Assembly (NCBI GenBank): GCA_051294905.1
Contig: CM119372.1
Coordinates: forward strand, 26,104,001-26,168,000
Reading direction: 5' to 3'
DNA: 64,000 nt
Origin: Botryllus schlosseri
Taxonomy: Eukaryota
Shown: positions 24,619 to 56,864 of the stretch, one piece after another
Layout of the letters: every line of letters begins with the position of its first letter
Position numbering within the stretch: position 1 is the first letter of the stretch
The notes under the pieces: generated by a model
What the model was told of the DNA's origin: nothing
The model's input: only the letters and a program-made list of their open reading frames with translations
Databases searched by the model: none
Made by a program: the position numbers and the translations under genes

Positions 24619-24947
24619 GCCTGTATCATGTAAGGTGAACAGCACCAGGTTTTTACATTTTATCAAGCTTAATATACGACTAAACTGATATACCCGCTTT
24701 CTTCAAATCTCTAAGCAGAAACAGCTGAGCAGACTGGCTGCGATGCAAAAGACACGTATCCACTTTGAATGCGTCGCCTTTTTATAACATATTTATCAGA
24801 TCAGTTGCTTTTCCGATACTTACGTCTTACAACAAGCGTCTGTGATTAAATATATCTATTCCGTCTAATACAAATGAATTTGTATAATATTTTACTAATA
24901 AATTATCGGATTCAAGTGCCTCTAAGGAATTTAGTGGGTGACTTTAG

Positions 24948-25051
24948 TTAGAAGAGGTTGCTTTCCTCGGTTTCATCTTTTTTACCGCACGGTTTTTCGA
25001 CGTTTTCCGGAACATCACAGTGATCTGCTCTACTGGAAGTATATAGTTTTC
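24948..25051 (-). CDS. CBM14-vWA gene terminal exon, completes CBM14 #6
   Basis: GKLYTSSRADHCDVPENVEKPCGKKDETEESNLF*; strong polypyrimidine acceptor. Confidence 0.82.
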
Positions 25052-28000
25052 CTGAAAAATAAAGGAAGGTGATTGCCAAAGGAGCAGATAAATCGAAGGA
25101 TATGTTCCGCGTTTGCGAGTCCTATGTTAAATGTAATTCCGCGTTCGGGTAGCGGTATATTCTGAGGTAATGGTTGGTTCTAAAAGAGACGGGCGTATTC
25201 TATAGAGCAGGGGTGTCAAACATAAGGCCCGCGGGCCGCATCCGGCCCGCCAGACGATTTCATCCGGCCCGCGAAGCAATTCTGAGTAGCTTGAAAAATT
25301 CTTATATTTTCATCACATTTGTAACAGATGTTGAGATTTTTTGAAGGATATACTTCCATTTTAATATGCCCCATCATAACCACCCGACTATACGACGCTG
25401 TGTTTCACTTTAGTTACCACTAGTAACAACAAGTCTGTGAAATTGATATCCAATTTCAAGAAAGTTAGGAGTGCGCACTGAGTTCATATCGAGTTTTATA
25501 CAAATATGGACAAAAAAGTAGATAGAGCCAATTAAAAAATAAGGCCATATTCGGAATCAGTGCCCTTCAGAACCCCAAAAACCACTCTTACTTTGTCTGC
25601 CTAAAAATATGTGTTGACCAGTAATAAACCAAATTGAAACGTCCGCGTTTCCAATTAAATATCTTGTATTTCTCACATCGCACATGCAGAGCTAACATCA
25701 GATTAAGGCTAAATCAAAGGGAGTATGGAATATGGTTACCATACGTCCTCCTTTAGGCGGATTTGTCCTCCTTTTTCAGGTCCTCCTTTTTGAGATTTTG
25801 TCCTCTTTTTTGAGAATTTTGGTCACATATAGGGCAAAATTTGACTGAGATACTGTAAATCAGCACCGAAGTAACGCTCTGGGGGCTATTTCGGGAGCCG
25901 AGCGGAAAGTTGGCCCTTTTTTAGTCAATGAATTGATGAAGAGAAATACTGTATTCCGGGCGCTGAGCGAGAAAGTTAGCCTTTTTTTAGTCAACCGACC
26001 ACGAAGTGGGAAAAATTTATCATTTTTTCAAGATTTTCCTCCGTTACTCTACGTTTGAAAATTTTGAAATAGTGTCCTCCTCTCCCGATTCCAAAATATG
26101 GTAACCCTAGTATAGAATATGCCAATTTATATCTTCGTTACCGCCATTGTTTTAGTAGTATTGAACTGTATTTAGCTGAACAATATTTTTGCTAATTCCA
26201 CTGTTCGCGAATAAAAGTGTTGCTACTTGCTAGTTTAAAAACCCTATGATCCGCGTATTATCTATTATGCTTTTGAGGTATTCAAGTGAAAAGCAAGAGC
26301 ACGAGGTAACATTTTGGAATCAGTTGACCAGTCCGGCCCGCGAGAGATTTGAAGGCTTGAATCCGGCCCGCGACGCAATTTGAGTTTGACACCCCTGCTA
26401 TAGAGTATATACAGTTAAGTGCTTTGTTAAATGCGATAAAGTCTACATAAATTTGGTCCAAGGAAGGAAGAAGTGTATATGTTTGGAATTTGACTGATAG
26501 CACATACACTAACCAGCGCTAGTGATACAATTGTGAGAAGTCTTGACACTGGAAATTCTTAATCCACCGATCTAAATTAAAACAAACTTTGAAAGTTGGT
26601 ATGTTGCGGTAATTTGCATTGCCTTGCAATGTTTAGTTTTACATAGTAGAAATATCTAACTATATCATTGGGGTAGTATTCCAATACGTTCCTCTACATT
26701 ATAATAATATTGTATACGTAAATATTAAAACCCGAAGTTAGAAGTAGTTAGATAAAAGTTTTTGAAATTCCTCTGAGGAGTGCCTGCTCGAAAAGCTTCG
26801 GATTTTAATATATGTTGGTAATGCATATAATATTAGAATGGATATTGATGTTCTGCACCAAAACAAGTCCCTCCGATTTTAATACTGTACCTCAATGGTA
26901 GGGATATTACTGCTCTAATTTCAACGTGATAATCATATGATACCGCCTATACTAAATATATTGACCATTGAATTTATTCAAACCTTCTTCACATTCATGG
27001 TGGGTGGCCTTCCCCCATTTGCACGTAAAGAACGCGTCACAGCGCACAGAATCCACGAAGTAGTCTTGGGAAACGTTTGGATGACATAACACGTGGCCCC
27101 TTGCGTTCGTGCACCGGGAACGATGCTCCGGAATAAGCTCAGTGGCGCACTTTCCAACGGCAGGACAAAAGCATCTGCTCAACGACCGGTCCCAGCACAT
27201 CTTCATTGCGAGACACTGTAATGTGAATATATTTCCTAACAACGCTCTTCTCACATTAGTCGTGTACCGGGTTGATCTGGCGTGCCATTTACGACGTCAA
27301 GACGGACGAAAATCACTCAGAGAGTTGTATGGGAGATGGCACACTTTTGACACCAGCTCGATCGAGAAAGTTCTGTGATTGAAGTGATTGGCGTAACATG
27401 TATTACAATCCGGTTTGCTGATCTCATTAAATGTCATGAGTGGGGCAGTTTTTTTACCTAAAAAAACGGAAGATTTTGACCTAAAAAATCAAAATTTTGA
27501 CGTTTTGTCACCTTAAAAAACTTAATTTGGCCAAATGTTGACCTAATGTATGCAAATTAAGTTTTTTCCCCATATGATGTTAGAATTGTACTACTTATAT
27601 TCATTTCTGGTTCTAACTGTTTGTCCTTACGATTTACTTCAGCGTGAAAAAACTTTTTGGACTCAAAAATTGACAAATTGTTACGTGAAAAAACTTTATT
27701 TTAACGAAATCTGGCCCTATGAAGAATTCCAGTAGTTACATTACGTATTATGGCAGAAATAATTAAAATTTGTTGCAGTACAACGAACGATACTTTCCTA
27801 CATTCTTGGGTCGAAAGTGACTGTAATTACCAAGCATCTTGCTAAGAATGGAGAAAGAACGTTCAACAGTAGCAGTTGTTGGTTGACAACACTGAAGCTG
27901 TGCGTGCGTACACTGATGGTGACACACCTAGTTGCTTCATTCTGACAAACGTGTCTACATCACGATTTTTCATAATGCGCTGCTTGATGCCCACGCAATT

Positions 28001-31000
28001 TCGTTTCAGTTAGTATATTGCGGTACGTTGAGCATAACATCATATCAACCTATTTGTTTCATTTGAATGTTTATGATTCAGAATGAACAGGCAACGGTAG
28101 GCGTATAAAGTAGGCTACAAACTGTAAAATTCCAAACGATAAGCTCAGCGACAGTGCAAAATCTACGATACAAACGAAATGCAGGTTGCAAAATTTTTTT
28201 GAGTTGGTTACCAATTCTGACATTTTTGGACCTAACGCTACAATTTGAGCTAATTTTGACTGTTTTCTACATCTAAAAAAATTGCTCTAGTCATGAGACG
28301 GTTCTTTAGAACCGGTGCGAACGGGCGGAATCCGACCATCGCGCGATTAGATATGTGCTCTTGGTTTTTGGGTCATCATTTGACAGAAGAATAAGTTCAG
28401 ACTTCACTATAATGTTATTCACAAACTTCAATCTAAAACGATTATATAACTTGCGGGCGCATTATATACTATTAATTCTACCAAGAATCTACTTACGTCA
28501 GCTTCACATAAATATTCGCCCTTGGAAGGTCCAGCGACAATGCTCGTACCGCATAAACCTGTATCATAATATGGTGGTCATAATGACATAAAATATAGTT
28601 TGTATGTACTCCATGAAATGTTGTTTTCGCAATCTTTGCATGGTTATTTCACTCTAGCTGTAGGTAAGAATATTAACGTATCACGTGCACATTAGCGTAT
28701 TGGTAGATTTAGGATTACAAATCGCATCCTAAAATTGTACAGGACCGCAGGCACACCGGCAATATATTTTTATACGCCCTATGTCACTATGGTTTGGCAG
28801 AAAAAAGTTTCAATGACAGCAAAGTAAACTTTTAGTTGTGTTCTACGAGAGTACGATCAATAGTCCTACCCGCCGTAGAAACTTCTTCAAGGACACTGGA
28901 CATTTTATTTGGAGTTTCGGGCTTCGGCAAAATAAAGATATCCCCTCCGGTTTCTTCTGCTAATTCATAGAAAGCTTTCTCCATTCTGTCGCTATAACCT
29001 GCCATGGAAGATCACAGTAACATATTCGAATTACTGAGTTGATTTGAAGTCGTTTAAAGTTACCTGTTGACCGCTTCCTTCTTAGCGTACGCGTTCTTTC
29101 AAAGACATGCTGCTTACAGAAGTCAGAACCCGTAACCATGCAAGGCCAGAGGCACTTTCCACAACAGGAAGTCAGCACCGGTATGAATGCACACCCTGCA
29201 AACAGTAAATGCAAATTACAACGCCTGAATATAATGACAGTTTTTTTTTTGGGGGGGGGGGCGGTATAAAATAGCGGATTAAGTGCACCTACACAGTAAG
29301 TCGACCAGTAAAAATTAGTGTATCTATCAGGTTCCACAGCATTGGGTGTACATCAGATTAACGACAAAACGCAGAGCCTATACACTCTACGGTTAGCGAA
29401 AAGAGAATGTATTCACACCATAAAGGAGGTAGACAACAACAGAACCTATACTGCGGTATAAATCAAACATAATATTTCAATACAAATGATGTCTGACAAA
29501 CTAGAATAACTACAAATGGAGTAGTGAGGAAAATAGGCACATCCGGAGGGACGTTCGAAAGTATATGCACATAGGTATGTACTATGCAGTAGGCCTATAA
29601 TGTGTAGCAATGCCTTTAAGTTAACCCGTGAATCAATCACAAGCCCCTGTTTCGAAAAGTAACCAAAAGAACCAATCTAGCGATTGAATGTAGGCATAGA
29701 AAGAAAAACACCGATTGATAATGATGGTTGGACCAGACCGTGATAAAATAAATTGAAACACACCGATAAGGAAATACTGTTCAGTCAATCACAAGTCCGG
29801 TATTCCATCGACACCCTAAGAGTGGATTTTCTAAATTCAGAAGTAGTTTTTGTTTTCCTGTATCCTCTGAAGGGTTTGAATATACACTATTTTCGTTAGA
29901 CGTGTATATACCTCTGTCTTCATGTTGAATATTAGGTTACGTGGGCAGCTTACATGCTAAATAACGAGAGACAACCCATTCACTTGATGACATATACTTG
30001 ATGAGGAGTGTTGCATGTTCATTGTTCAGTTAATACACTGCGGGTCTAAACTACGAAACCGCACTACGTAGTTACCATAGCTTAGCTCGAACGTACACCT
30101 ATGCATTTCAACGTTCACCTACTTTTTCTCAGTAGAAGTTGTAAAACTTCATACGCTCTGTCGACATCTTTTGCGACCGCATCGCTGAATAAAAATATCT
30201 TGCACCCGTCGTTATCGTCAGGAACCTCGTGTAATGCTTTCTGAAGACGATAAATTGATAGCAATTTTGCTCGACGACACGGAAAAGCTATTACGCAACA
30301 TTACTCGCCATTCGCGTACATAACGAGTAGGGAATACAGACAGAAGATGTTATTCTGACCAGAGTTGGATCAATTACATTATTTCAGTTCAATTACAATT
30401 ACAATTACAATTACTTTCATGCATGTTTCAATTACATTACAATTACAATTACTCCATGCTAAAAATATCAAATTACAATTACAATTACAATTACTCCTTG
30501 CATGCTTCAATTACATTACAATTACAATTACAATTGCTGCTGTTAAACATGTGATTGAATAATCATAAATTCAACCGTGCTCCTTGACAACCGTAGTGTC
30601 GTATTTAACAACAATTCAAGTCTAGTTCAGATTGTGTAGTAATAAATGCGTTTATGTGCGTACATAGTATGCTATGTAAGATGTCATTGTGACGTAATAT
30701 AATCGTGTTTTGTATGCTCGGTAATTATGGCTCACGTAATTGGAAATGTAAAATGTTATTTACCTAATTTCCTATGGGTTAGGATTAAGGATAGGGTGCA
30801 GTATGTCGTTGAAAAAGTATTATAATATATGCGCGTGTTGGTTTGCGTATATAGTATATAATTGAAGAAATAATATTATTTTTATCGAGGGACGTAGGAA
30901 TTAGGATGAGGAGTAAAAACAAAATCGTGCTTTGTCAGATAAGACGTTATATAATATCCAGTGGTCTGGTTAGTTAGCCAGACGAAGTAACGATGCAGCA

Positions 31001-34000
31001 TCGTGATCTGAAATCGTATTGCAGATTGCCAACCCACGGATAGATGCGCAAGATGTGAGTCACGGATGAATGCACCGACAAACGTACTGCAGAGCCGGCT
31101 AAAAGCAGCAAACTTTGTAGTCCTAGAGCTGGCGATCCATGCGTCCAAATTTGATGCATCTGGTTTTTATCGTAAGCTATTGATGTACTAATTCCGAAAA
31201 TACAAAATAAAATCTCGTCAGGGCAATGTAACTGCTCCAAAATAGCCGCTTAAGGCCGACTGTTCTGAAAAGTGAGAGCGCTGCAGCAGCATGACCACAA
31301 CAATTACCAATTACGCCCAGCGATTGTTCAGAACAATGCCGATTCCCAGACTTTCACGACTATTTTGGGATGGTACCATTGCCTGGAAATATACTTTTAT
31401 TGCGGTATCAGTGCGACACTAGCTTTTGATTAGGACCATACATATCAAATTTCGACGCTTGGATCGCCAGCTATGGGACTATCAATTCTGCTGCTTTTAG
31501 CCGGCTCAGCAGTCCGCTTCTCGGCGTATTTAATCGTGAGTCACGTGTTGCGAATCCATCCGTTGGTTAGTAATCTAAAAATTGTATACAATGGCAGCCG
31601 AGGCCAGCATAGCGGTAAAAATTTAAAAAAACTTCGCCCGTAAGGGCGCAGTCAAGGGCTTCGGCGAATGGATTCACCAAATTCCTTGTCGACATTTAAA
31701 GAGAATGCATTATAAGTCAATTATTTTATGTTGTGCTTGTCAGGTTTCAATAGCAATTTAATGTAATTGAAATTGTAATTGAGCAAAATTTTTGTCAAAT
31801 TACAATTACAATTACAATTACACAAAATAAAAATGCTTCAATTACAATTACATTACAATTACATTGAAAAATGTAATTAATTACATTCAATTACAATTAC
31901 AAATTACAATTGATCCAACTCTGATTCTGACTACCCGTAAAGGGGTGTGTAAAGATAATAACATGCTATGCGTTTATGGAGAATCCTACAGCGCAACAAC
32001 GATGCATATGAGTCCGGGTGCGAAATATAATTAATGTAGCGAGCGATGACCCGTCTGGTTAATGACGTCTTATCCAAGTAAAGACGGTTCAGAGTCTTTG
32101 ATATTGATCCAGCGTAGGTGGTTTTACTTTCCGGTGTATACTGCTTGAGAGAGGAACGCACAAAACTCATGCGTATGCTATAGCTGAAGTAGGAGATGAA
32201 AATCAATATTTAAAAGTTTGATCGATCAATTAGCATTGGAAATGATTGCAGCCTATGCATCTGCGTGTTTTACACATCATTGCCATTAGGGTTGCATTTA
32301 CAAAAATGATATTTTAAAACACTTTGTTCACAACATGTGTCGAACGGTGTTTTTAAAAATGCCTTTTAATAAAAAAAATCGTGTTTTTTCAGACGTTGTA
32401 TAATTATGTTATAATTGTGTAAATATGCATTATGCAATTAGCGAGTTCAATTCCACCACTAATTCAAAATGGTGTCGAAAGCAATTCCATTACAAAACTA
32501 AATTCAGCTATCGTGCTAAAGTGAGAGCGTGATGGCGATTTCACTCGTAAAAACGAAGATATTCCGTCATGAAAATTATATCCTGCTCCAGAAAAAGTAA
32601 TAATAATACAAAACGGCATCTAGTATACTCTGGACTGAATCAACGTTAGTTCAACTCGGCTCTCAATGCAGATCTAGCTCATGCATAGTATATGCATGGT
32701 ATATCAGCAGGCAACCTCATTAGATACTGATGATCGTGACCAATCATACCATAGTATGTTGGTATATCATACGTAGAATAGTAAAAAAATGGTACAGAAT
32801 ATCATAGCGAAACACGTATATTGGACTCAGATAGCAATTACCAAGGATAGTATATTGACGTTGGAACATCAAGGAATGATCAATCCATGTGATTAGGGTT
32901 TACATTTCGAGGAACGGCCCTGCTTGAACTTAACACGAGCGTTGACAGAAGCAATTCGAGACCGCGACCTCCCCGAGCATTGACTTGTGACTTGAAAGTT
33001 TCATACCGACGAAAAGTATCGCATCAGTTAAGTAGAATTTCAAACTATTGTTTCAACCTTGCAACTTCTACTCGTCTTTCGATAACTGCAAAGTCCGCTA
33101 TGTAACTCAGGGATATGCTGTTTCATGGAAATCTGTGAAATGGCGAACGGCATGCAGCATTTTCACAATTTGACAGATCGCTTTTCCTGGTTGTTATTTA
33201 TTAACTTTTTTCGATGAAGACGGAGTTGCATTATATTCATCGTGATGAAAGACACATATATGCTCTTAACTCATTCTGGGTTACAATGTAATTTGTGTTA
33301 CTCTATCCTATCTCGAACACATTTCTTTCGGGCTTAATATTTATATGGATTATTCATTCCCCGCGACCCTGCATGTTTCTTACATTTCTTATCGCAGCGG
33401 CATACTGACATGGCATCAATTGATCGTCACATTCTAGCATAGAGGAATGACTTTAAAACGTTATACTGCAATCCTGCACGCTTGTGAGTCTTTGTAAACT
33501 TCATAGTCACTCATATTCATACCAGTATTCCAGCCATGGCCATTTCAGGGCAATCCCATCCTCCTCGTGTTTGCAATGAGTTAATTGCGTTGATAGCATC
33601 GTCAGAGTTAGTCGTTGGTCCGATTTCTAACTTCGCATCTACAAAGTGATTAAAGAATTACTTACTGTACGTACAATTAAACCAGCCTTATAACATGGCT
33701 TCCATACACAAATCAAAAGTACTGCTGGAATCTTCTCAGCAGTGAGCGCTTTTAGAACTTTATAGTCCACGAAAGTCCGATTACAAAAGATTATTTATTC
33801 TCAACTGGGATATTATAATCTGTTCAAAGTGAAAATTTTAAGAGCTAGTGTTCTGAGTTCTGCCCTATGATGCAATCAAACTGGCAAATATTGAGCATTA
33901 ACCATATAAAATTTACTACGAATGATAAAATATATTTGACGTAACTTAGAGTTCAAAAGTGTTGGATTCTACCGGCTCGATGTCTCTTCTCTCATTATAT

Positions 34001-37000
34001 TACGGCAATTTGCATCTGAGTCAGCAGTCGCTCAGCAAATATCAGTAAATCTCTTTCTTCTTAGTGTAATATGATAATAACTAGCTTTTGGAAGCTATGA
34101 AATTAAATGCGAAAAAGCAATGGCTTACGCTTTTGACGTGTGACAGGAGAAAGTCACTTGATCAAGGTATATATATACATATACGTGGAAATGTACGCGA
34201 TAATTCCTACATCCGACGGTGCCAAATCTATTGCTGGCATATCATACCGATTAAATACATCAACGCATACCTGGGTCATTAAATGTAGAAACAATCCATC
34301 CTCCTGTGGGCTCGGAACCGCATAAGAATTTTGTTCCTTCCACGCACCCTTTCAGCCACTGCTTCACAGCTTCAATCTCGTTCGCCATGGAACCGCTATC
34401 GTCAATCACAAAACCGACGTACGTTCGTTCTGTAAGGCACACGCAGTTTCACGGATAGCATACGCACTTGTTTTGATTGTGACAATCATCATGGTCATCA
34501 AAGACATTGAATAAAACAAGCTTTGTCTTCGTACGTGCGATAGGAGTCGTTCTGCTATCACGATTACAGTATTGAGTGTTGTTACTATAGGAATAATTCC
34601 ATAATTTTATAGTCAATTGCAAGCAGAAGTAGCCTCTTCCAAGACATGTTCGAATTATTTCAAGTGGTAGTATGGAAAATGGAGGTCTGAAAATTAAGTA
34701 AGTAGCTTAAAGAGGAGATTTGGTTGAAGAGTCTCATACTCTTAGCAAATAATAGAAGGTGACTATAGTTCCAAAATTTACGGCTGCATCTTCGCAGCTG
34801 ACACACATCGATTAATGACCAGTGGTGGTCGGGAAGGAAGTATATATGCTTCTACTTCCTCAAGTGGATATAATTGTAGACTACTTCTACTGCATAGTTT
34901 TAAGTTTTTCAGGCACTACTAGGCGTGGAATTTCCGCTTTTATGCTTACTTACAACTTCCCCTTGAGTACTAGCTATAATAGGGTTACCATACGTCCTCC
35001 TTTAGAAGGACTTGTCCTCCTTTTTCACGAAATCTAAAATGTCCTCCGATAATGCCTAAATGTTCCTCATTTTGGCAATTCGTTATCCTTTATACAGCTT
35101 TGACAGCTAGGCGATTGTACAGGCACCACTAGAAAAGAGCATAAATGTCGCGAAAATACTGTATTTTCTGGATCTCAAAGTATGGTAACCCTGAACTATA
35201 CCTACCTTGCGCATCTCTCTTAATGACAAGGCTAGGTATACCATATTCAGAAATACATTCATTTACCGTAATGCGTGGGCTATTTCGCTCAGTGGGCTAT
35301 TTCACTAATAAAAGTGATGTAAACATATCCCAAGACTACTTTCTAGTTCTACTACAAAATCCAAAGTGCAAAGGTAAGTCGGTTTACCTAAGATCTGTTT
35401 GGTAGGAGAGGTAGTAATCTACCAACATAACCTCTTGGGCTAATAGTACATGCGAGTGGGGCTGGGCACAATGATTCGAGTACTCGAATCTGAATCGAGT
35501 ATTAATTTTAATGATTCGAGTCGAGTAGTAAAAGACGATTTTTTTTGAGTACTGAAATTATACGCTCCTCGCCACTGAAAGTTAATTTATTAACGATAAT
35601 TATAGTTTCGATACTATACTTGAGCCTTGAAACCTTGATTGGCATAAAGTAACATAAAGTAGAAAGCTACGAACGTTATTGGCAATAGCACATTTCCGAA
35701 ATCATGCTCATCCCACAACATTGTCATCACGTACAATGAAATCGGTACGGTCGAAAGAATACCAAAGTATCTTTAATGTGATGGAAAACAGGCATTATAT
35801 TCCTAAAAGTTACATATTGGAACTTCGACATATTACATTTTGTTATGACGTCATAATGAGTGATACTCGATTACTCGACTCGACTCGAAGCATATTACGT
35901 GATTCAGAATCGAATCACTCAGGTACTCGATTTTGCCCGGTCCTACATGCGAGCAAACTAATTTCAGAACTCCAAAATAGTACTTCGTTACGAACGACAT
36001 TTGCGTTTCCCCATGTCATTTACTACATTAAACCTACGAATGCAACAGCAGTTACCTCGTGACGCTTCGGTAGTAGTGGTACTTTGCTTAGGTGCTTCTG
36101 AAATATATTAAAGTAAAAGAATGAAATGAGGGAGGTACACAGGATGAAAACGTCGAGGTATAGGCCTACCCTACACATAATGTTCAACTATCATCGCCTT
36201 GCATTTGCGGAGACTGAATCACTGGACGCCGCACACTGAGCTTGTATACAATATATTTCTCGTCTTTTGGAATCGAGGAATGATAGTAACTTCAGGTGTG
36301 TCAGCCTAAAGGTGAAACTAAATCCTGTATCAAACGGAAGCTGGCGTTTATTTGATGCCTAAATCTGATTAAATGGAATGAGGCCAGGGTACACCGGAAC
36401 CTCTCAAAATCGCCTTCCAATTTGGAATTGTAATTGAGAATGGCATTTTCGTGAAATGTCGTGCTATTGTCGTCACGTACAGGTCCGATAATTTCGGGAA
36501 AAGTTGAACATAGTTGCTGAGAGTCAGAACATTCATGTTGACTCTCCGCGCGCAACGTCTTGGCACACCCTCTTGAGTTGTGCAATGACAACATTGCTAA
36601 TGCCAATTTGGATGGGGTGTCTCGAGTACACTATTTGTATTATGTATTACGTCCCACTATCATCTTCAAAGAAAATTAAAACAGAAAATTCTTCTTACCT
36701 GTAGTTGCTGGCGGCTCCACATTATGAGGAGGGGTTGTTTTACTCCCAGATTCTGGATATATGTCATGATATCGTTATTATATTGAATAAACTCTTCGCG
36801 TATCTACGAAAAACTCACGTCCGTCACACCCTTGTACCTCCGATGGCCAGTTGCACCGTAAAATATCCGTGTCAAACACCAATCCTTCCGGACATGGCAT
36901 CTTATATGCTTTCCCTGGAGTAAACAAGGAAGATGATTAATTTGTTTCGGCAAATATACTAATACTAATAATCCTACCATGTACACATTGATAAAAGTAA

Positions 37001-40000
37001 GGATAACAATTATTATCCAGGATGTACAATTCTCCGTGATCGTGACCGTGGCATCCTTCGTCTGGAGGAAGTAAAGATTTTCTGTGTCTGCAAATGCTAT
37101 TAGGAAATCACCAACACAGCGAATACACTGACCTGCACCACAACCTTCTACGTTATGAGGATGATCGCAAATGCTGTGATCCGGGTTGAATATCGTTCCA
37201 GGCGCGCAGGGCTGTTTGACAGGTTTGCCTGGAAACAAAATAATATGGCTCGCTAAAGGAACAAAACAATAGTGCCTATGTCGAATTTTTTCATAGCGAT
37301 AGAAGGAATGTGAAGCATGCATGGATAAATGCTGAACTGAGTGAAAGCTCATTAGAGTGCCAAGTCATGTTAGTGGCCAATGATAACGACGTTCCATCGA
37401 GTTCAAGTTAAAGTTCAGGTTATTTTTGCTTCAGCATATTTGGCTTATCTGGGAATTCGATACTTGAATTGTGGTCCGGAATGGTGCATTCACAAATATG
37501 ATAATCCTGTCGTCAAATCTGAATAATATCAACTTCAACCTTATCAGTAGAGTTCAGACCTGACCGCTATCTGTGTTATACCTGCCAACCTGCATCAACG
37601 TGTCGTCAGCAAAATGAATGAATGATTTGTTAGCGGTTATAAAATCATTCACCCTTCTCATACCAAACACTGTCATCGATGCATCTAATAGGTTGGTTAG
37701 TTTTTTTATGTGAAGACGTTCATTTCAAATTCAACACGGACGTGGAGTCTGCAGCGATGACATTATTGTCTATACCTATACATGCGTACGTCTTCATTCA
37801 GAATACATTATTCTATCACATATTTTCAAGTCACCATGGTTGCAAATGTAATAGAATGCGAAGCAGCCGTCTCCATCCACGTACAATTCCCCATTAGAAT
37901 GTCCATTGCAGCCGCCGTTACCTGAATATGGAAACGAAAAATGATTCCCTACCATTGTTTTCTCCTGCGCACAGAAAATCTAAGCAACGCATCAGAAATC
38001 CAAAGTGATGACCTTTCTAGTCGTTACGCACTGCTGTCCCAGGGACCGCGCAGTGAGTTGGTGAGTGCGCGTAGACTCGTGAAAAATTAGAGGGAACATT
38101 GTCCCTACCCAACTCAAGAGTTGGTGATGTAAAGTGAAAAATCATTAATGACTTTACTTGGATAACTCAAGCAAGGCCGCTAAAGTTGCATTTTCCATAG
38201 GTGTTGTGTGAATCTTTGAAATGTGAACACAAACTCATGAAGGAATCTCTGGAAATACGATGTGATTCCAAACACAGTGTAAATATATTCAAAACTTGCG
38301 AGTCGTAATGGCATAATCTAGAAGCGCAACATCAGTGTCGTTTGAAAATAATGTACATGCATCAAGTAGGCTACTCTAGGTGCCCTTTATAAGATGTTAC
38401 CCGTAATGACATATCTCATCAGTGTTCTATATCAGTTTGTAGATTATTTTTTATCAGTATGGTTCGCGCATTCACACTGAGTATTGTTGTGTTGGTCCGC
38501 TACTCTGCAGAGGCCTGGAACTATATTTTGCACCGCGGATCCAAACATATTATTTCCGGTTGCGTCTGCCATAGATAGCATTGTCGCCTTTCAGGAGTAT
38601 AGGCCAAACACTTAACACATAGAATAGTGACGGAAACTACTCATGTTATTACTCGCAGCCAGAACATGGTCATATATCAAGCGAAACTCTCAAAAGTCAA
38701 TATTATTCATGACCACGAAAAGCATCGATAATGTTTACACAGCTAACCTTTTAATGTCTATTTATAACGCCTTAGACTTATACGGGGTTCTACCATCAAA
38801 AAAATCGAATTGGTCAGGCATTACCATGCTCGCATGTAAATGATACTATATTGCCCCGTATCGAACCTGACTATATTCCTGAGTTGGACTGATTCAACCA
38901 TGTGAACGATATCTTCGTCAACATTAGTTCCGATTATTTATACTTCTTCTTTAAGTAATTTCGCTTAAGTTTTAGCTTTAGTAATATAGTGATTTATCAA
39001 TTTCTACCTGTACTTGACTGCATAATTGACGACGTCATTGATACCCGAGTAGTATAAATGGGAGTCACCAAATTATCAAATCTAACAATAGGCCGTAGTA
39101 ACTTGATGAATGCTTACCTGAATTACAAATGCTTACGTCAGAAGGCCAGTTGCAAATATCCAGAGAGTCATCGAATATGAGGCCTTTCGGGCAATCCATT
39201 TTATAAGTAGTGCCTAATGCAAAAGTTGTTACATGCAACAATAAGTATTCGAATGATTAGGATGTGTAGCACCATCCAGTGTAAGTTCAAATACCATGTG
39301 AGCACTGGTAGAAGTATGTGAAACAGCCATCGCTTGGAACGTACAATTCTCCGTGATCGTGCCCATGGCAACCGTCTGTATCCTCTGTGCCTAAATGTCA
39401 ATAGTGTGTTAAGGCGTCGTTGGGTTATTTGTGGCGATAGGTGGCTGTATAAGTTGTAAATATAAATGTATGCTGTACTCCGACATTTCAGTCGTATTAT
39501 AATTGACTATGAATACTTTTTTGAAGGATGAATTATTTCGCACGTTCCAAATACTACAACCAATGCAGTCTGATTTAACCAAGATGTTGCCTACAGCCAT
39601 ATAATCAGAGAAAAAGCGAAAACGACGTAGGCATTGTAAGCATACTATACCAGCATGTATATAACATGCCGGTGTCTAAATGTTCGAATTCACGGGCCAG
39701 TACTGAACTATAAATATACTTCGAAGAAGCACATACATAACGTATTTCTGGATCCGGATCGAATCCGATGTAATCATACATGGATTCCCAATCGAACCAG
39801 GGGCTCCCAAAACTAGATGGAATCGGATTTGACGTTAAATAAAGTACAACCGGGTGGTGAAGCGTTCCAATTCACAATTCAGTAAATATTCAGATTTGTT
39901 TTAGTACTGAAACACATTGACTAGAGAGTAGCTAAGTAGGAACTTTTAGATTTAGCAAACCACAGTCATATTTGCGATTTGCAAATTCCAAATTTTATTT

Positions 40001-43000
40001 TAATCTGAACTTGATTCTTAATTAAAGACGGTAATTCAGATATTCAAATCCTTTTTTATCGACCAAATACCCGGATTTGTGTTAGGTTATCATCTCATAT
40101 CACTGCATGTCACGCAGTGCGAAAAAGTACTTTTGATCACCTTTTACAATACTATGTCATGGCGTGTAGTTTGACATTTTGAGTAATATATGAAATTAAA
40201 AATTCGAACCGGTCAGCTCACCCGTGCAGCCGTCAACGTCTCTGGGATGGTTGCATACGCCGACATTCGGATCAAATACAGTACCAGGGGCGCATGGCCG
40301 TTTCATAGTTTTTTCTGGAAACACGCGATCAGAATGTCAACCACAAACAGATAAGTAAGTCCAAACTACTATTTTAAAATTATGGTTACCAGTGGTATCA
40401 AAAATCAAAACATTAAATATCATATATATCTGAACACAGAATCCCTCATTCGAATACACGAACCATATCCAAGGTGTGTTCTGGTAACTATAGCTCCACG
40501 CATAGTCAAGATGGTCACGGAGAAGCAACAGTAGCCATCTCACTGATGATGCTTTGTGCATGATTCGAATAAATGAGTATTAGGTTCAAAAGAGTTGAAA
40601 GGGGAAGCCACCATTGCATGAAATTTTCTAGACCGGGTTGTTGAGGTAGAAAAAGTTTAGAAACGCTGTTCCACAGCAAAACTATCATTTGCATCCAATG
40701 GTGCGGTCGAATTCTTACGGTGTGTAAATATAGACTTCTTGAGATGTAGCAGTACGAACCAATCACACTGCACCCTCCGCATAGCTTAATTTACCTACTT
40801 ACCTATAGTTACATAGGCCTACTCACTTAGTTACTTGATTAGATTCAAAGTCAGCCAGTTTTATTTCTATTTGAAGCAGTTATAAGTTGATCTTTAAAGT
40901 TCTATTTCTATAGTCCTATTTTGGTAGATATTGGCGTGGCTAATTCCACCTTTACTGGACCAGCTTACCTCACTACTTTGACGACAACTTTCACTATAGT
41001 ATACGCACATAATCGTAATCAGCCTCCCACATATGCGTGTTTAGGTCTGGGCGGAAGTGATTCTGCTTACTTTTTTTAGTTCTTGTTGTTTGTGACATTC
41101 ATGGTGTTTTCGACTACAATGACCCTTTACACCACGCCGATATTTCTTTTTTCACTCTGTAGCTGCCGACTTGTAGCACGGTCTACTTCTACTCTTTCTG
41201 TAAGACACCGCTTACGCGGATGAGATGGCTAGGAGGAGCCTAGATAAACCTCCAACACATTTTTAGTAATAAGCCTGCCAAACTTAGTGGTGGCTCGCGG
41301 AACCTTTCCAATCGGGTCCCGAACATAACAAGATTGTGAACCCCTGTTACACCGAATACTCCAATGATTATTGTTGCCATTGATTCAATGCAACTTTCGT
41401 GGTCGATTAAGCTGAATGTTATGTCACACTTTGCCACATTTGATCACTTCTAAATCTGTTTCTATCCTTTTAGTAGATCCTGGTGTATTATAATAATCGG
41501 TTCACCGATAATGGCGAGTTCATATTACACTTTGAAATAACTAAAGGCATCGGCCATCAGAAATTAAGAAATAATATCGGCAAGAGAACTATAATAATCT
41601 GCGACAGCTAGACTGAGTATACAGATCAACTTATAATAGCTTATGCAGATGTCCATATGCAGCCATAGTTTATTTCATTTCCAAGCAAAGTAATAGTTGT
41701 AAAGCTGTTCAATGACATGCTGCGAAATTTTAGAAATGCGTCTTAAGCTAGATGCCATATATGTTGCCTATCAGCCGAATATACCGGGGTATCGATGAAC
41801 TTGCTAGTTATCTGATTAATCGGCATCGGCTCAAAAATTCAATATCGGTCAGGCTCTATCTTTTAGTGTACCAATAACTTTTCGTAAGATGCAACTGAAA
41901 AGACTTCAATTTAATGTTAAGGTATTCTTGTACTTGTAGGGTTACCATATTCTGGTATCCGAAAAGGAGGACACTTTTCACAAATCAAAAAGTTACATGA
42001 CCGGAATAGAAAACTACTTTCAGAATTTTTACTGGAAATCTTCCAGTGTTGACTAAAAAATGGCATTTTTTCCAACTCTACTTCCGCATGACCCACCCTT
42101 CTACAAATACTGTTGTGTTGACAAAACAAAATTCCGAAAGACCCTTATTTCTCGCCATTTATGGCGTTTTTAGTTCGGCCTGTCCACTGGCTGTTAAAGC
42201 TATAAAGGAGGACGAATTCCCAAAAACGACGACATTTAGGCGTCCTCCATTTAGGCCTTTCAAAGAAGGACATGATGAAACCCTATGTAGGTTACTTGGT
42301 GCTGCGACAGGGTTGGAACCAAGTCACAAGGCTCCAAGTCGCAAGTCAATATCACTTTTATAGTTTTGACTCGATTGAAGTCGAGTCATTTTTAATTCGC
42401 CACCGAGTCAAGTCCTAGTCCAAATCAGCGAGCAGAGGGTCGAGTCCGAGTCGTGGTATTATGACTCGAATCCGAGTCCAAGTCATTGCGTTGACTGCTC
42501 ATTTTGAGTTAAAGTCTTGTTAAAACCATTTTTTAGAACTCTGTTTGGTGATATCAAATGGTTCGCATTTAAAATATACTAATTTTCCTCAATTTTAAGG
42601 GTTTCTGGTCGCCTTTTCACGCGCCGGTACCGATAGGTGAAATACCAACAGTGTGGTTACATTACTATTCTTCGAAATTACAATGAAATTTCGGTCTTGG
42701 CCGTCTGAGACCCGTGTCATATGACTTGGTCCGAGTCATGCGCAGACAAGTCGAGTCACGTCAAGTCATCAGCAAATCGCGACTCGAGTCACTGCAAACC
42801 TGCTGCGATGAAAGCAATCCTCAAGTTCTGCACCACCAACCAGCTGTTTTAATTCCAAATATTTTTCGAAATGCGATTCCCATAACTCGGTTGTCCATAG
42901 AAACGCAGTATTACTTTCGAAATGCTAATTCATGCGAATACATGAAACCTAAGTCTCATAGGGCCTGATCAGCGAAGGCATGTCTCAAGAACTTATATAC

Positions 43001-45197
43001 TTCATTTGAACACTCAAGTATAGGTTGCGCTCACGGACAGTAATTCATACTCAAGCGGTGTTGCTTGATAGACCGGTTTCATCTTCAATTCAATGATCTT
43101 GAGGTTACATTTTTGAATGAATTACATAAATACTGAAAAGCTTTTACAGACCACGGATACTCAAAAATCGTCTTTCAGTAGAAAAAAAGTGTTATTACTT
43201 GTTATATTGCATCTATAAATTATGACATCCTGGATTTTCCATTCTCTAACAGGCTAACCATATAAAGTCTGCATTATAATATCAGCCTTACTGTGTACGC
43301 ATTCATTGTAGAATTCAGAGCATTCTTGATATTCAAAAAGTGTCCCTTCCTTGAATTCGCCTTCGGAGCAAGGATCTCCCTTGATCACATCTATTTTAGA
43401 ATGAAATATATTCATAAGTAGTTAACCTTCTACATGAGAAGCATGCAATGCATAGTAAAATCTTACTGCCGCATCCCATGCTATCAGGGTGGTTGCAAAC
43501 ACCTATCTTTGTGTCGAACATCGTTCCTGCCCCGCATGACATCCTTACGGCGTTCCCTGTCGTCAGTGAATTGATCAGCTTAAAGCAGTGTACGGGTACT
43601 GTATTTCGGCCTCCTTACCGTGTACGCATTGATAATATGTTATACTGCATTCTTCAACAGTATATAGACTGCCGTCTTGATAAGTTCCATCCGCGCAAAG
43701 GTCTTTCGCGGTGATGCCTGGAATGGCAAACAGCGCGTATTGCAGTTAGTATAGGATAAAAAGCTCACTAGATAATATACCGTGGGAATAAATTCGCTCC
43801 TTTCACAAGCAACGAGAGTCGCAATCCTGTTAATTGCGCATTTCGGTTGATAGTGAACCGTTCATGTCTTTACAGCGGAAATATTTTGATGAATATGAAG
43901 AAACAAAGCATTCGGTGCGAGTTGGCTCCCAAGTAAAGTTTATAGGACTTATGATAATTCAAAATTATTGGGATCGTTTTCTGACGGCCGTTTACGTAAT
44001 TGCCTAACTTGTTTAACTATATGTTATCAGAAATTGTATTCATTCTGCCTGATATCAATTGTGAAATTTTTCCCAAACAATATTTGTGAGCGTTACTTAC
44101 TCAAATGATTTGTTACGAAGACGATGCTATAAAACACAACACACTCCTCCAGCTGTCTCTGTGACCATTTATCAGTGTTTTAAAAGCAGCGTTCGTTGCC
44201 CCAACCTGTTGTCAATCTCGTTGTATAGGCACATCCTTGGCCAGCAGATCTCATTATAGCACGGCCCACTTTTAGCCTTTTTTTTGTAAGACACCGCTTA
44301 CGCGGATGAGGTGGCGAGGAGGAGCCTAGATAGACCACTTAGGTATTATAAATCTGAAGTCGACCTTGGTCGGACTCGAACCCGCACCCATTGGTGTTGC
44401 AGCCGCCGAATATACCACTGCGCGATGTTGCCACGCATAAGAAGAGGTAGTTTACGTGCAAATACGATGCATAGCTAACCCTGATATCGATTATTTAGTC
44501 GCTTACAGGTGTTATCAGGTGCTCTGCCCATAGTTCGGAATAAAATGAAAGTGGTGATCATGATATTTTTTGTTGTATTCCAATTGTTTTTTGAAAATGA
44601 GCCATTCGTACTTGTTAAAGAGACAGCATTGTGCTGACCTAAAGTTTCAAAAATTCGGTTGTTAAATTGTGTTGACTATTTTATCGCGATGTTGATTTCA
44701 TGCGCCCCGCGGCCTCTACGATATTCGAAAAGTGGCCCGCGACCCGTTTTGAGTGGCGACCCCTGCAGTAAGCGAACTCGCATACCTCCATACGTCATTA
44801 ACTGCATTACATTTGCCATTAAAATAATTGGTTATATTTCTCAATGAAAGCGTTAGATGATAGCTTTCCAAATTATAACGAAGTTCGCAAATATAATATT
44901 AATTTAATTCATGCGCATATCTGAATACAATTAAAAGACAGCAATAGATTAATAAGCCCTTAATAATTGACTTGGTTTAATGTAGCCTAAAACATTGTAT
45001 ATGATCATCAAAACGACCATCATTGCGGTATGTTTGATACCTCGAAAGCGTCACTTTGTGGCAGAGTATCAAGAATGCAAGAGTCTACCATATATTAACG
45101 CTGGACCTTCCAACAAGCATAAAATCCACAATAACTTTATCTTACCTGCAACAAATGAAACATAAAGTAAGAACAAGCTACGTAAATGTCGAGACAT
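24948..45197 (-). CDS. 21-exon gene: secreted protein with 6 peritrophin-A/CBM14 chitin-binding domains and a hemicentin/VWA7-like vWA domain (711 aa)
   Basis: Manually spliced GT-AG exons: 45146-45197, 43619-43717, 43467-43556, 43292-43390, 40222-40314, 39295-39390, 39118-39213, 37835-37921, 37133-37228, 36978-37061, 36819-36914, 36699-36752, 36056-36097, 34271-34429, 33523-33638, 30123-30240, 29064-29195, 28870-28998, 28497-28558, 26984-27215, 24948-25051. Total 2136 nt, phases compatible, no internal stop. Six-Cys CBM14 pattern and MIDAS DDSGS present. The 28497->27215 junction is the least certain. Confidence 0.85.
25208..26397. mobile_element. hAT MITE, CAGGGGTGTCAAAC family, in last intron of CBM14-vWA gene
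   Basis: TIRs; perfect TSD CTATAGAG. Confidence 0.93.
25731..26109. mobile_element. nested hAT MITE, TAGGGTTACCATA family
   Basis: TATGGTTACCATA ... TATGGTAACCCTA; TSD GTATGGAA/GTATAGAA; GTCCTCC repeats. Confidence 0.85.
26984..27215 (-). CDS. CBM14-vWA gene exon 20, Cys-rich segment and CBM14 #6 first part
   Basis: CLAMKMCWDRSLSRCFCPAVGKCATELIPEHRSRCTNARGHVLCHPNVSQDYFVDSVRCDAFFTCKWGKATHHECEE. Confidence 0.8.
27435..28295. mobile_element. TIR element with CATGA termini
   Basis: CATGAGTGGGGCAGTTTTTTTA vs reverse-complemented right end CATGACTAGAGCAATTTTTTTA; no TSD found. Confidence 0.55.
28497..28558 (-). CDS. CBM14-vWA gene exon 19
   Basis: GLCGTSIVAGPSKGEYLCEAD; tacag acceptor, gtaagt donor. 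Confidence 0.7.
28870..28998 (-). CDS. CBM14-vWA gene exon 18, end of vWA
   Basis: GYSDRMEKAFYELAEETGGDIFILPKPETPNKMSSVLEEVSTA; LAxxTGG motif. Confidence 0.88.
29064..29195 (-). CDS. CBM14-vWA gene exon 17, vWA with Cys-rich loop and RRKR site
   Basis: RCAFIPVLTSCCGKCLWPCMVTGSDFCKQHVFERTRTLRRKRST. Confidence 0.85.
30123..30240 (-). CDS. CBM14-vWA gene exon 16, vWA
   Basis: KALHEVPDDNDGCKIFLFSDAVAKDVDRAYEVLQLLLRK; F[TS]DAxxKD motif. Confidence 0.9.
30360..31923. mobile_element. hAT MITE with (AATTAC)n arrays
   Basis: TIR CAGAGTTGGATCAATT; perfect TSD ATTCTGAC. Confidence 0.93.
33523..33638 (-). CDS. CBM14-vWA gene exon 15, vWA
   Basis: DAKLEIGPTTNSDDAINAINSLQTRGGWDCPEMAMAGIL; GGxDCPEM motif typical of hemicentin-type vWA. 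Confidence 0.92.
34271..34429 (-). CDS. CBM14-vWA gene exon 14, start of vWA domain (MIDAS DxSxS)
   Basis: ERTYVGFVIDDSGSMANEIEAVKQWLKGCVEGTKFLCGSEPTGGWIVSTFNDP. Confidence 0.92.
34980..35193. mobile_element. hAT MITE, TAGGGTTACCATA family
   Basis: TIRs; degenerate TSD AGCTATAA/AACTATAC. Confidence 0.8.
35457..35945. mobile_element. hAT MITE with ACTCGA repeats
   Basis: TGGGGCTGGGCA ... TGCCCGGTCCTA; perfect TSD CATGCGAG; right-end remnant also at ~61790-61834. Confidence 0.88.
36056..36097 (-). CDS. CBM14-vWA gene exon 13, Thr-rich linker
   Basis: EAPKQSTTTTEASR; tttcag acceptor, gtaact donor. Confidence 0.72.
36699..36752 (-). CDS. CBM14-vWA gene exon 12, Pro/Thr linker
   Basis: QSGSKTTPPHNVEPPATT; gtaaga donor. 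Confidence 0.75.
36819..36914 (-). CDS. CBM14-vWA gene exon 11, CBM14 #5 second half
   Basis: GKAYKMPCPEGLVFDTDILRCNWPSEVQGCDG; gtgagt donor. Confidence 0.9.
36978..37061 (-). CDS. CBM14-vWA gene exon 10, CBM14 #5 first half
   Basis: DEGCHGHDHGELYILDNNCYPYFYQCVH. Confidence 0.88.
37133..37228 (-). CDS. CBM14-vWA gene exon 9, CBM14 #4 second half
   Basis: GKPVKQPCAPGTIFNPDHSICDHPHNVEGCGA (lies within ORF 36804..37352). Confidence 0.92.
37835..37921 (-). CDS. CBM14-vWA gene exon 8, CBM14 #4 first half
   Basis: GNGGCNGHSNGELYVDGDGCFAFYYICNH. Confidence 0.88.
39118..39213 (-). CDS. CBM14-vWA gene exon 7, CBM14 #3 second half
   Basis: GTTYKMDCPKGLIFDDSLDICNWPSDVSICNS; gtaagc donor. Confidence 0.9.
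39295..39390 (-). CDS. CBM14-vWA gene exon 6, CBM14 #3 first half
   Basis: GTEDTDGCHGHDHGELYVPSDGCFTYFYQCSH. Confidence 0.88.
40222..40314 (-). CDS. CBM14-vWA gene exon 5, CBM14 #2 second half
   Basis: KKTMKRPCAPGTVFDPNVGVCNHPRDVDGCT; gtgagc donor. Confidence 0.9.
41070..41262 (-). mobile_element. SINE family B, 3' portion
   Basis: Matches the body and tail of 55828-56105. Confidence 0.8.
41937..42285. mobile_element. hAT MITE, TAGGGTTACCATA family
   Basis: TAGGGTTACCATA ... GAAACCCTA; GGAGGAC repeats. Confidence 0.72.
42308..42800 (+). mobile_element. hAT-type MITE with CGAGTC repeats
   Basis: Starts CAGGGTTGGAACC; flanked by direct repeat TGCTGCGA. Confidence 0.85.
43292..43390 (-). CDS. 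CBM14-vWA gene exon 4, CBM14 #2 first half
   Basis: NVIKGDPCSEGEFKEGTLFEYQECSEFYNECVH; gtaagg donor. Confidence 0.9.
43467..43556 (-). CDS. CBM14-vWA gene exon 3, CBM14 #1 second half
   Basis: GNAVRMSCGAGTMFDTKIGVCNHPDSMGCG; gtaaga donor. Confidence 0.9.
43619..43717 (-). CDS. CBM14-vWA gene exon 2, CBM14 #1 first half
   Basis: GITAKDLCADGTYQDGSLYTVEECSITYYQCVH; ccag acceptor, gtaagg donor. Confidence 0.9.
44258..44434 (-). mobile_element. SINE family B
   Basis: B box GGTTCGAGTCC and shared body. Confidence 0.85.
45146..45197 (-). CDS. CBM14-vWA gene exon 1, signal peptide
   Basis: MSRHLRSLFLLYVSFVA(G), then G|GTAAG donor. Confidence 0.75.
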
Positions 45198-46624: not shown

Positions 46625-49433
46625 TTGATGTTCACATAGCCATCCACAAACTGAAATCGCACAAGGCCGTCGGCTATGACCAAATCCCATCATGGTTTTT
46701 AAAAAGGATGAGCTTGCATATCGGTCAGTATCAGAGGTGGTCAAAGTAATCAAGAAATCTACTCAAGTAGGAGTAGAAGTAGCGACGAAAAAAATCTAAT
46801 CAAGTACGAGTAGAAGTACTTCTTACATAGGCAACCTAAAACTACTTGAAGTAGAAGTAGAAGTGTCTGGCTTCAAATCTACTCAAGTAAGTAAGTAGTT
46901 GTGAAAACGATTGAAATTCGTTCGCATGGACTGTCAAACGCTGCAAATGGAGCTATGCGGAAGGTGTAGAGAGCTTGATTCATACTGATGCATCCCAGGA
47001 GACGTCAATTTTGGAGGCACAATTAACACTTTGCACGATTAGTATACGTTAATTAAAAATATGGCAGATCGCAAAAATGCCATATAGTGTATAGCTTTAT
47101 GGTCGGAAAGTATAAGGCATTTCAACATGTATGTTCTCCGGACAAAAGAACTGAAACTATAGTTAGAAGTCAACGTATAATACTCGTAATTCAAAGAAAA
47201 ATACAAATACTACTTCCAAAAAGCGGAAAATACATTTCATGTCTTTTGTCCAGAAAGTTTCAACGGTGGTCTGCTAAAACAGGTCTAACATCAGAAACAG
47301 TTTAGTCCACTTTTCCAGATTAGGACCCGTCATGGGCTGCTAGGTATAATAGGTAATTTCTAGATTGTGAAACGGTAGTTTCAAACACTATGGGCGCCAT
47401 ACTTACTGTGATGAAATATTTGATATAGGCGACAATGACGTCTGAACGGAACCAGGCAGCCCGGTATCTAAAGTATATTCAGCGATACTTTCGTTAAAAC
47501 GTAGTTGCCACTCTATCTTAACTCTGCGCGAAGCGCAACGAACATTCTGGGTATTTCATGACTTTTATGAAAATTAAACAGCCCCGAAATTCCTTAGGCT
47601 ATATTTCTTATTGGTGGATTAAATTACTTCTACTTGATAAACTGAAAATAGCGAAAAGTAAGTAAGTAGTTCACTAAATATTACGAAGTAGAAGTAGAAG
47701 TAGCGACAAAAAGATATACTTGAGTAAGTATCAGAAGTAGAGGAAAACTACTTGAGTACTTCGAAAAAGTAGAAGTACTTCGTTACTGACCACCTCTGGC
47801 TCAGTATATCGCCCATTTTTTCAACTTCATAATAGAAAATCAAGTCTACCAATGCTGTCTAAAAAGCCAGAGTTCCTGTAGTCCCTGTACACAAAGCTGG
47901 GGATAGAACTAATGTTACCAACTACCGTCCGATATCCGTTCTCCCATGCATCGGGGTTGTATTCGAAAAGTTGCTCCTCTACCGCCTATCCTCATTCCTC
48001 GCCAAAATGTTTGTCATTTCCCCACAACAATTTGGCTTCCGAAGCAAATACCAAACCTCACATGCCCTCCTACCAGTGGCAGAACAGTATTATGATATCT
48101 CAGAGAAGCGAAATGTCGGACGTAGCATTTTTTACGATCTAAAAAAAGCGTTTGAATTCTTATCTTGAAATTGGCGCGTTACGGGATCCGGGCCCACAAC
48201 TTGAGCTCATGACGCCAACAAATAGTTGCGATCTCAAACACATTGTCCTCTCCTCACCTCATGACTTGTGGTGTACCCCAAGGCTCAGTACTTGAACCGG
48301 TCATCTTCAACTTATATGTCAACGACATTTTTGAAACCTCCTCATTGAACACCACACTGTTCGCTGATGATACTCACCTCCTCTCTTCCGCATATTTGAC
48401 GGCAGAGATGGATGCCCTAACTAGTGACCAAATGCCCAAAGTGCATGAGTGAACTGCCGAGAATAACCTTTGCATAAACGCCATGAAATCTCAATTGCTG
48501 ACAGTAAATTCAAAAATGAACCTAACCGTTAACATCGCTGGTCAGCCCGTTTCCAACACAGATAATGCCAAATATCTCGGGGTTTACTGGACTCGGACAT
48601 GTCCTGGAAGAGTCATTCAGTCCCTAGACACTAAATTATCACCGAAGTGCGGCCTGTTCTACAGCCTTAGGCGCTTTATGCCAGCCTGGGTTCTTCTGAT
48701 ACTCTTTAAATCCCTAATCCAATCGAAGTTACATATGGCATCCTCTGTTGGGGGGCTGCCAATAAAGCTGCACTCGATCCGCTGCAAAAACTGCAACATA
48801 AATTACTCCGTATCGTAGCTAGGGCCACAAAGGGGCCTGGTTGCCCATCCAACAAGTCGCTGCTGAAGAGATTCGGTGTCCTAAACATAGAAGATATGCG
48901 GAAACTAGAAATCGTCGAGATGTGTCAGTTCCACTGCGGTCTTTGCCCCGAATATTTCAATGACTTCTTTACCTCGGAATCAAAAGCGCTCAAGTACAAC
49001 ACACACGCGTCCAAGTCGTCCAAATATCATATGATCGACCGAAAAGATCATCGCTCTATCAAATATGCCGGACCTGATGTGTGGAACAGTATCCCGCAGG
49101 CCATCCGACAGTCAACGAGTATGTCCACGTTTAAATCGAAATACAAGCAATTACTACTCCATCCTCAAGATTACCCGACCACAACTGACCTGTCGATATC
49201 GCTTTCCATGACATGACGCACCATTTCTTGTCGCTTTCTTTTTTCTATGCTATCTTTTTTACTTTTCGTTCAGTGTGCATGCTTCCTCTTTAGATCGCCT
49301 AGCCCTAGGTGGGTGTCGGATTGCATAGACTACTCCAAGTCGCTTCGACACCTTCCTATCTTTCCATTTTATCGCATTTTTGTGGTGTAACAAACTGACA
49401 AAAATTGCTAATAAACCAATGATGATGATGATG
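46625..49433 (+). mobile_element. 5'-truncated CR1/L2-type LINE (decayed RT), interrupted by a MITE
   Basis: KAVGYDQIP, VPVHKAGDRTNVTNYRPISVL, GVPQGSVL, LFADDT motifs with frameshifts; AATAAA followed by (ATG)n tail. Confidence 0.92.
46732..47798 (+). mobile_element. hAT MITE, CAGAGGTGGTCA family, copy 2 (inside LINE)
   Basis: TIRs; flanks GGTCAGTAT/GCTCAGTAT; LINE ORF resumes after it. Confidence 0.92.
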
Positions 49434-56385: not shown

Positions 56386-56864
56386 GTGTCCGGACAATAC
56401 CGAGAAAACCATTACCGAGAATGCCATTACCGAGAATGGACACCACCGAGAATGGACATTACCGAGAATGGACACTACAGAGAATGGACGTTACCGAGAA
56501 TGGACACCACCGAGAATGGACATTACCGAGAATGCAATATATGCAATGCAGGCATGTTATGCATATGCACAGGTCGTGTGTGTGCATCACGGCGTTGCCA
56601 CATTCGGTATCGATGCTCAGGTATAAATTTCTCGACAACGTCAGTCCCAGTAAGCTATATTCTTGACATTGGCGACAACGTCAGTCCCAGTAAGCTATAT
56701 TCTTGACATTGGCCATTCTCGGTAATGCCCATTCTCGGTGGTGTCCATTCTCGGTAATGACCATTCTCGGTAATGTCCGTTCTCGGTAATGTCCATTCTC
56801 GCTAATGGCACTCGCGGTAATGTCCATTCTCGGTAATGGTTTTCTCGGTATTGGTATAGAACCC
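56386..56864. mobile_element. foldback-type (Mutator-like) element with TIRs built of ~16-bp tandem repeats
   Basis: (ACCGAGAATGGACATT)n at ~56399-56534, inverted at ~56714-56852; possible 9-bp TSD ACATTTACG/ACAATTTCG. Confidence 0.8.

Follow-up and report, generated by a model that had tools for sequence, protein, structure and literature searches.

In hemicentins, a von Willebrand factor type A (vWA) domain is followed by GBD_Hemicentin and by long arrays of Ig and EGF domains. This vWA domain is placed at the N-terminus, and the function of VWA7/NG37 is stated as unknown (PMC4968443; this article and the three others used below are cited from parts of their text). The mollusc shell matrix proteins Pif and BMSP are secreted and contain a vWA domain followed by CBM14 (PMC11291548). 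Arthropod peritrophins carry tandem CBM14 domains with proline/threonine (P/T)-rich spacers (PMC6109156). VCBPs consist of two Ig-V domains followed by one CBM14, a domain which binds chitin. Here we analyzed a stretch of 64,000 nucleotides from Botryllus schlosseri (assembly GCA_051294905.1, contig CM119372.1, positions 26,104,001 to 26,168,000; termed the window, with positions counted from its first letter). It contains a minus-strand gene for a protein which has CBM14 domains on both sides of a vWA domain and which belongs to a conserved ascidian family.

The gene model was rebuilt independently from coordinates, using six-frame translations and lists of AG/GT sites. It comprises 21 exons and extends from the ATG at 45197 to a TAA ending at 24948. 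The spliced length is 2136 nt, corresponding to 711 amino acids plus stop, which bears out the claim of a sequence-only reading of this DNA that 21 small exons form one open reading frame (ORF) of 711 amino acids. All five vWA motifs quoted in that reading were located in the rebuilt protein. The 20 introns are all of the GT..AG type with lengths of 62-3282 nt, and 18 of them are in phase 1. An open frame was obtained for one of eight exon-boundary combinations tried. As a chance control, boundaries were picked randomly among AG/GT sites up to 30 nt away, and none of the 5000 resulting models had an open frame. The region around the gene is AT-rich (GC 36-43%). Stop-to-stop frames of at least 100 amino acids overlapping the gene contain at most one exon plus intron; the gene is absent from the ORF track because its exons measure only 42-232 nt. 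Nine exonic variants are listed, six of which are silent and three residue-changing, and none stops the frame.

RNA was checked in four of 24 listed runs, including the contig sets X1 and X3 and the runs X13 and X17, for the stretch 24900-44899, which leaves out intron 1. Among the 15 joints listed, ten skip exactly the modelled lengths of introns 10-13 and 15-20, so that the junction check proposed along with the earlier model shows 10 of the 20 introns directly. These ten joints all read CT..AC on the plus strand and are present in both X1 and X3. Seven of them also occur in raw reads of X13, with 38 first mates on the plus strand versus 3, as expected for minus-strand RNA. The joint of intron 13, which connects linker and vWA, was found in contigs and in zero raw reads among the joints listed, and introns 4-9 and 14 follow from contig offsets only, with no listed joint. 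Introns 2 and 3 are not among the joints listed either. Record 7 of X3 (776 nt, depth 22.6) contains exons 17, 16 and 14 with a gap of 116 nt that equals exon 15. The other 211 nt of this record correspond to exons 13, 12 and 11 (192 nt) and some 20 nt from exon 10. The fifth CBM14 and the vWA domain are thus encoded on one RNA contig, a contig not being a single molecule, and the outcome of separate genes for CBM14 and vWA exons did not occur. In record 4 of X1, 833 nt precede exon 14; by arithmetic, not by a joint, this length agrees with 744 nt for exons 5-13 and a further 89 nt from exon 4. Past exon 21, RNA contigs extend beyond 24906 into the 3' untranslated region. In X17 no joint of the gene was seen and most exon bins had zero depth; the depth in X13 was low. 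The word content of 36690-39400 in ten sequencing runs of one organism was 0.05-0.17, about the exon share expected; none of these ten runs is recorded as RNA. The gene is real and expressed.

The encoded protein consists of a predicted signal peptide, five CBM14 domains, a P/T linker, a vWA domain (Pfam VWA_4), a cysteine-rich (Cys) module and a sixth CBM14. The Pfam scan covered 18 of the 21 exon translations, exons 1, 12 and 13 being too short. Exon 1 (45146..45197) contains the start codon and a signal peptide (aa 1-17) predicted from the hydrophobic N-terminus. Six units with six cysteines each are located at aa 25-79, 88-143, 152-206, 213-267, 273-327 and 644-699. Their Cys gaps of 14-15, 5-6, 9, 12-13 and 7-9 residues are the peritrophin-A spacing of CBM14 (PF01607). 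Each CBM14 is divided between two exons with phase-1 borders, a layout which would fit duplication of a two-exon module. The first halves of CBM14-1 to CBM14-4, assigned by gene model and Cys spacing, are found in exons 2 (43619..43717), 4 (43292..43390), 6 (39295..39390) and 8 (37835..37921). The second halves, in exons 3 (43467..43556), 5 (40222..40314), 7 (39118..39213) and 9 (37133..37228), match Pfam CBM_14 with 25.4, 26.2, 31.7 and 30.6 bits. CBM14-5 is encoded by exon 10 (36978..37061; RNA joint of 63 nt in three of the four runs) and exon 11 (36819..36914; 31.3 bits and RNA joints). In total, 5 of the 18 scanned exons exceed the CBM_14 cut-off of 22.1, each with half a domain. The linker, rich in proline, threonine and serine, is formed by exon 12 (36699..36752; RNA joints skipping 66 and 601 nt) and exon 13 (36056..36097; RNA joints skipping 601 and 1626 nt).

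The vWA domain starts in exon 14 (34271..34429, with RNA support), which contains D371-x-S373-x-S375 of the metal ion-dependent adhesion site (MIDAS), a family-specific Cys pair, GGW and FNDP. Exon 15 (33523..33638; 116-nt offset in record 7 of X3) contributes the DCPE motif and exon 16 (30123..30240; RNA joints skipping 3282 and 927 nt) the SDA motif with D473. These three exons match VWA_4 in profile order (3-48, 56-85 and 94-122), each alone scoring below the cut-off of 27. Exon 17 (29064..29195, RNA) encodes the last vWA strands and a Cys-rich insert ending in RRKR (aa 531-534), a possible convertase site. The C-terminal vWA helices with LAEETGG are located in exon 18 (28870..28998), as indicated by model, RNA and vWA alignment. 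The MIDAS is intact and, together with the VWA_4 matches and the vWA fold, identifies a vWA of the hemicentin/VWA7 type (PF25106), as had been proposed from the motifs. The Cys module of about 45 aa begins in exon 19 (28497..28558; RNA joints skipping 311 and 1281 nt) and ends, with a CWD motif, in exon 20 (26984..27215, RNA). Exon 20 also encodes the first half of CBM14-6, a half-domain match of 17.7 bits which lies under the CBM_14 cut-off; the C-terminal CBM14 of relatives scores above it (P0018: 32 bits). Exon 21 (24948..25051; RNA joint skipping 1932 nt in three of the four runs) contains the second half and the stop, 12 aa after CBM14-6. Pfam matches and Cys spacing thus agree with the earlier calls of CBM14 and vWA. 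The "Cys-rich segment" of that reading is present, but it is rather a discrete, repeatable module, which occurs in three copies in P0009 and P0051. It weakly resembles a trefoil (P-type) domain by sequence: 2 of 13 modules match Pfam Trefoil (best E 0.045), the one score listed, 11.9 bits, lies below the cut-off of 21, and EGF_2 and other profiles match too. No glycoside hydrolase GH18 or other catalytic Pfam family and no Ig domain was matched in the 18 exons. The protein is a non-catalytic mosaic of secreted type, in which chitin-type modules flank a conserved metal-site head.

For identification of relatives, exon 14 was used as phmmer query against 1.84 billion representative sequences. 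This gave 35 matches at E ≤ 0.001, 17 of them at ≤ 1e-10. A profile search, in which 8000 candidates were scored, yielded 22 matches, and these are set apart from the VWA7-type proteins by a wide drop in score. Every close member with a name is from an ascidian: two loci in Styela clava (LOC120329598, XP_077975042.1; LOC120329748), three in Clavelina lepadiformis (LOC143450601, LOC143449433, LOC143450764), two in Ciona intestinalis (LOC100186095, F7AAC8; LOC101242049) and one fragment in Ciona savignyi (H2Z259). In the databases they are called "uncharacterized", "unnamed" or "chitinase", and many further family members are metagenome- or run-derived proteins. Since the exon 14 search extended to VWA_4 proteins of scallop and flatworm (E about 1e-4), a close named member outside ascidians should have scored, and the family is likely restricted to tunicates. 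In a vWA tree with 26 rows (midpoint root only, no Pif sequence included), the 18 family rows form their own branch with support 100/99 against eight hemicentin/VWA7-like rows, and the Botryllus vWA is sister to Styela LOC120329598 (99/98), which points to a stolidobranch ascidian as the source. Six extra invariant cysteines, W386 and GGW are shared by all 18 family rows and absent from the eight outgroup rows.

The domain layout was compared in 16 long family proteins chosen from 72. The order CBM14(n)-vWA-module-CBM14 occurs in nine of them, including two pairs of near copies. The vWA-module pair is present in 15, and the sixteenth ends directly after the vWA. Four of the 16 have no CBM14 at all. 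The fixed core of the family is the vWA domain with the Cys module of about 45 aa, and the N-terminal modules are variable (0-16 CBM14, trefoil, EGF), with a trefoil match in P0017 and EGF matches in P0016. The layout is conserved across Styela, Clavelina and Ciona: five named relatives share the Botryllus order with 16, 3, 2, 2 and 1 N-terminal CBM14 units, compared to five in Botryllus; LOC101242049 differs by two vWA-module units. Styela LOC120329598 is 52% identical to the Botryllus protein over the vWA domain, and for the N-terminal CBM14 array the identity is 45%; vWA identity across the named ascidian members is about 41-52%. In the fragments P0003-P0007, P0014, P0019, P0021, P0023, P0024, P0027 and P0034 the match ends right after the FNDP-type motif, and the sequence continues with C, S or G and then unrelated residues. 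Such ends are expected if the fragments share phase-1 intron 14 of the Botryllus gene. The sequence-only reading had considered an independently assembled protein; instead of a one-off, a conserved ascidian family was found, whose gene models are already deposited in NCBI/UniProt. Database searches gave no match to a characterised family, and no description of this one was found in the open literature; Supplementary Table 1 of PMC6109156 may still list it. The domains are known and the gene models public, yet the family is apparently undescribed.

For the Botryllus protein we infer, with about an even chance, a function in the gut barrier, as a cross-linker or adhesin tethered to chitin. The secreted protein would grip chitin fibrils with high avidity through the CBM14 arrays at both ends, and the linker, prone to O-glycosylation, would hold the CBM14 array apart from the head. 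The disulfide-reinforced vWA and the Cys module could then bind a putative protein or glycoprotein partner (a mucin, a matrix protein or the protein itself) via a metal ion. A convertase may cleave at the basic RRKR sequence of the vWA insert, with disulfides keeping the pieces joined. The net effect would be a chitin mesh cross-linked to its protein matrix, and the likeliest site would be the chitin-framed barrier membrane and mucus of the gut, the chitin structure described in Ciona (PMC6109156, PMC4757023). In Ciona, the gut membrane consists of a chitin mesh, and its top three proteins are MACPF1, VCBP-C and GFM1 (PMC6109156); chitin staining extends from stomach to hindgut (PMC4757023). 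Several observations weigh against this function. The family is not named in the main text of PMC6109156 on the membrane proteome, in the parts cited here, which name three other proteins. Hyaluronan and N-glycans are further ligands of CBM14 (PMC6109156), and the four relatives which lack CBM14 indicate that the core function does not depend on chitin. The low expression in X13 and its near absence in X17 are unlike a bulk structural protein, although the RNA runs carry no tissue label.

Low and sample-dependent expression would suit a chitin-anchored recognition protein similar to VCBP, with CBM14 on gut, fungal or prey chitin and a head which catches microbes or starts an immune response. 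VCBP-C follows the same logic of anchor plus head and tethers bacteria to chitin beads (PMC6109156), several paralogs exist per genome, and the head is retained while CBM14, trefoil (P0017) or EGF (P0016) are swapped at the N-terminus. However, the 18 exons gave no Ig domain match, and the head, with about 41-52% identity among named ascidian members, is strongly conserved and not variable. This function is less likely than a gut-barrier cross-linker. The binding of CBM14 to ligands other than chitin (PMC6109156) also speaks for placing the protein in another structure, such as tunic cuticle, egg coat, pharyngeal mucus net or attachment glue, where CBM14 would bind N-glycans or another polysaccharide. 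The mollusc shell matrix is built by vWA and CBM14 proteins (PMC11291548), and the closest general vWA relatives are of the hemicentin/VWA7 type. Such a matrix or adhesive role is nevertheless unlikely, as chitin production is mostly downstream of the pharynx (PMC4757023) and a Pif-type laminin-G domain was not found in the 18 exons.

The UniRef names of F7AAC8, H2Z259 and three Clavelina entries (A0ABP0H497, A0ABP0H5N7, A0ABP0H6H8) suggest a chitinase, and thus a chitin-modifying enzyme. GH18 or another catalytic Pfam family was found in no family member scanned, a glycoside hydrolase match is lacking in the four "chitinase"-labelled members scanned (P0053, P0055, P0037, P0012), and the structural model of P0002 predicts a vWA fold instead of a barrel, so that an enzyme is hardly credible. 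Another picture would be a tunicate-specific family with a fixed head, formed by a disulfide-locked, convertase-cut vWA and a reduced trefoil-derived module, with exchangeable targeting modules and, in most members, a chitin clamp at either end. Taken as a whole, this picture is improbable.

Besides the gene, the window contains several repeats. Decayed retrotransposon reverse transcriptase with broken frames (RVT_1, E 5.9e-7) is located at 47863-49216 (+) and 21602-22033 (-), with the frame at 21602-22033 resembling a copy of the one at 48710-49216. An element of about 1.56 kb at 30360-31923 in intron 15 is bounded by 35-nt inverted ends (74%), has AATTAC arrays close to either end and encloses an inverted repeat of 177 nt. 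Long contigs cover it deeper than the gene, and it looks like a non-autonomous DNA transposon. Related short repeats of both orientations and high read depth occur in introns 20 (25729-26109), 13 (34978-35027) and 4 (41937-41985), which probably represent a family of miniature inverted-repeat transposable elements. A dispersed repeat at 41195-41250 and 44281-44434 (93% over 56 nt, loose read ends) is possibly similar to short interspersed elements. Two 16-bp tandem arrays in opposite orientation surround a perfect 40-bp duplication at 56392-56838. No tRNA was detected in the window by ARAGORN.

How mucin layers replaced chitin membranes in chordates is studied mainly with the tunicate gut barrier as a model. 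This conserved family, with several copies per genome, predicted chitin anchors at the two ends and a putative metal-dependent head, is a candidate for the link between chitin and its protein matrix or microbes. The "chitinase" labels of several UniRef entries are unsupported, and the Ciona members make the family experimentally accessible. The surprise is moderate, because all parts are known and the gene models are public. If the Cys module were a trefoil lectin which binds mucin glycans, the family would link mucin to the chitin mesh of the chordate gut barrier as an unrecognised cross-linker, and would be a functional forerunner of trefoil-factor/mucin cross-linking in vertebrates.

Compared to the known systems, the Botryllus protein shares with hemicentin and VWA7/NG37 the vWA subtype with DxT/SxSM, FNDP, DCPE and S/TDA motifs, but it is without VWA7_N, GBD_Hemicentin and Ig domains in the exons scanned. 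In contrast to hemicentin, its vWA is central and the chain ends at aa 711. VWA7_N, GBD_Hemicentin and Ig_VWA7 are present in P0057-P0059 and in no family member scanned. P0057-P0059 are JGI metagenome proteins which also contain VWA_4 and thus show the complete VWA7 layout, one of them with PKD and bacterial Ig tails. With Pif and BMSP the protein shares a CBM14 downstream of the vWA, but it has CBM14 on both sides, a vWA of the VWA_4 type and no laminin-G part. The contrast in domain order drawn by the sequence-only reading holds for the CBM14 array N-terminal to the vWA, but not for the C-terminal half, which is itself vWA then CBM14, and it is weakened further by the relative P0018 without N-terminal CBM14. 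The resemblance is probably convergent, the vWA tree covering family and hemicentin/VWA7-like rows. Tandem CBM14 and a P/T-rich spacer are common to peritrophins, but the vWA head is absent from these as described in the cited parts of PMC6109156. Like VCBP of amphioxus and Ciona and like Ci-GFM1, the protein is a secreted chordate protein in which a chitin-binding domain is joined to a binding or scaffold module. This module is Ig-V or VWD/C8/TIL there and vWA plus Cys module in Botryllus, and the single CBM14 of VCBP and Ci-GFM1 compares with six in the Botryllus protein.

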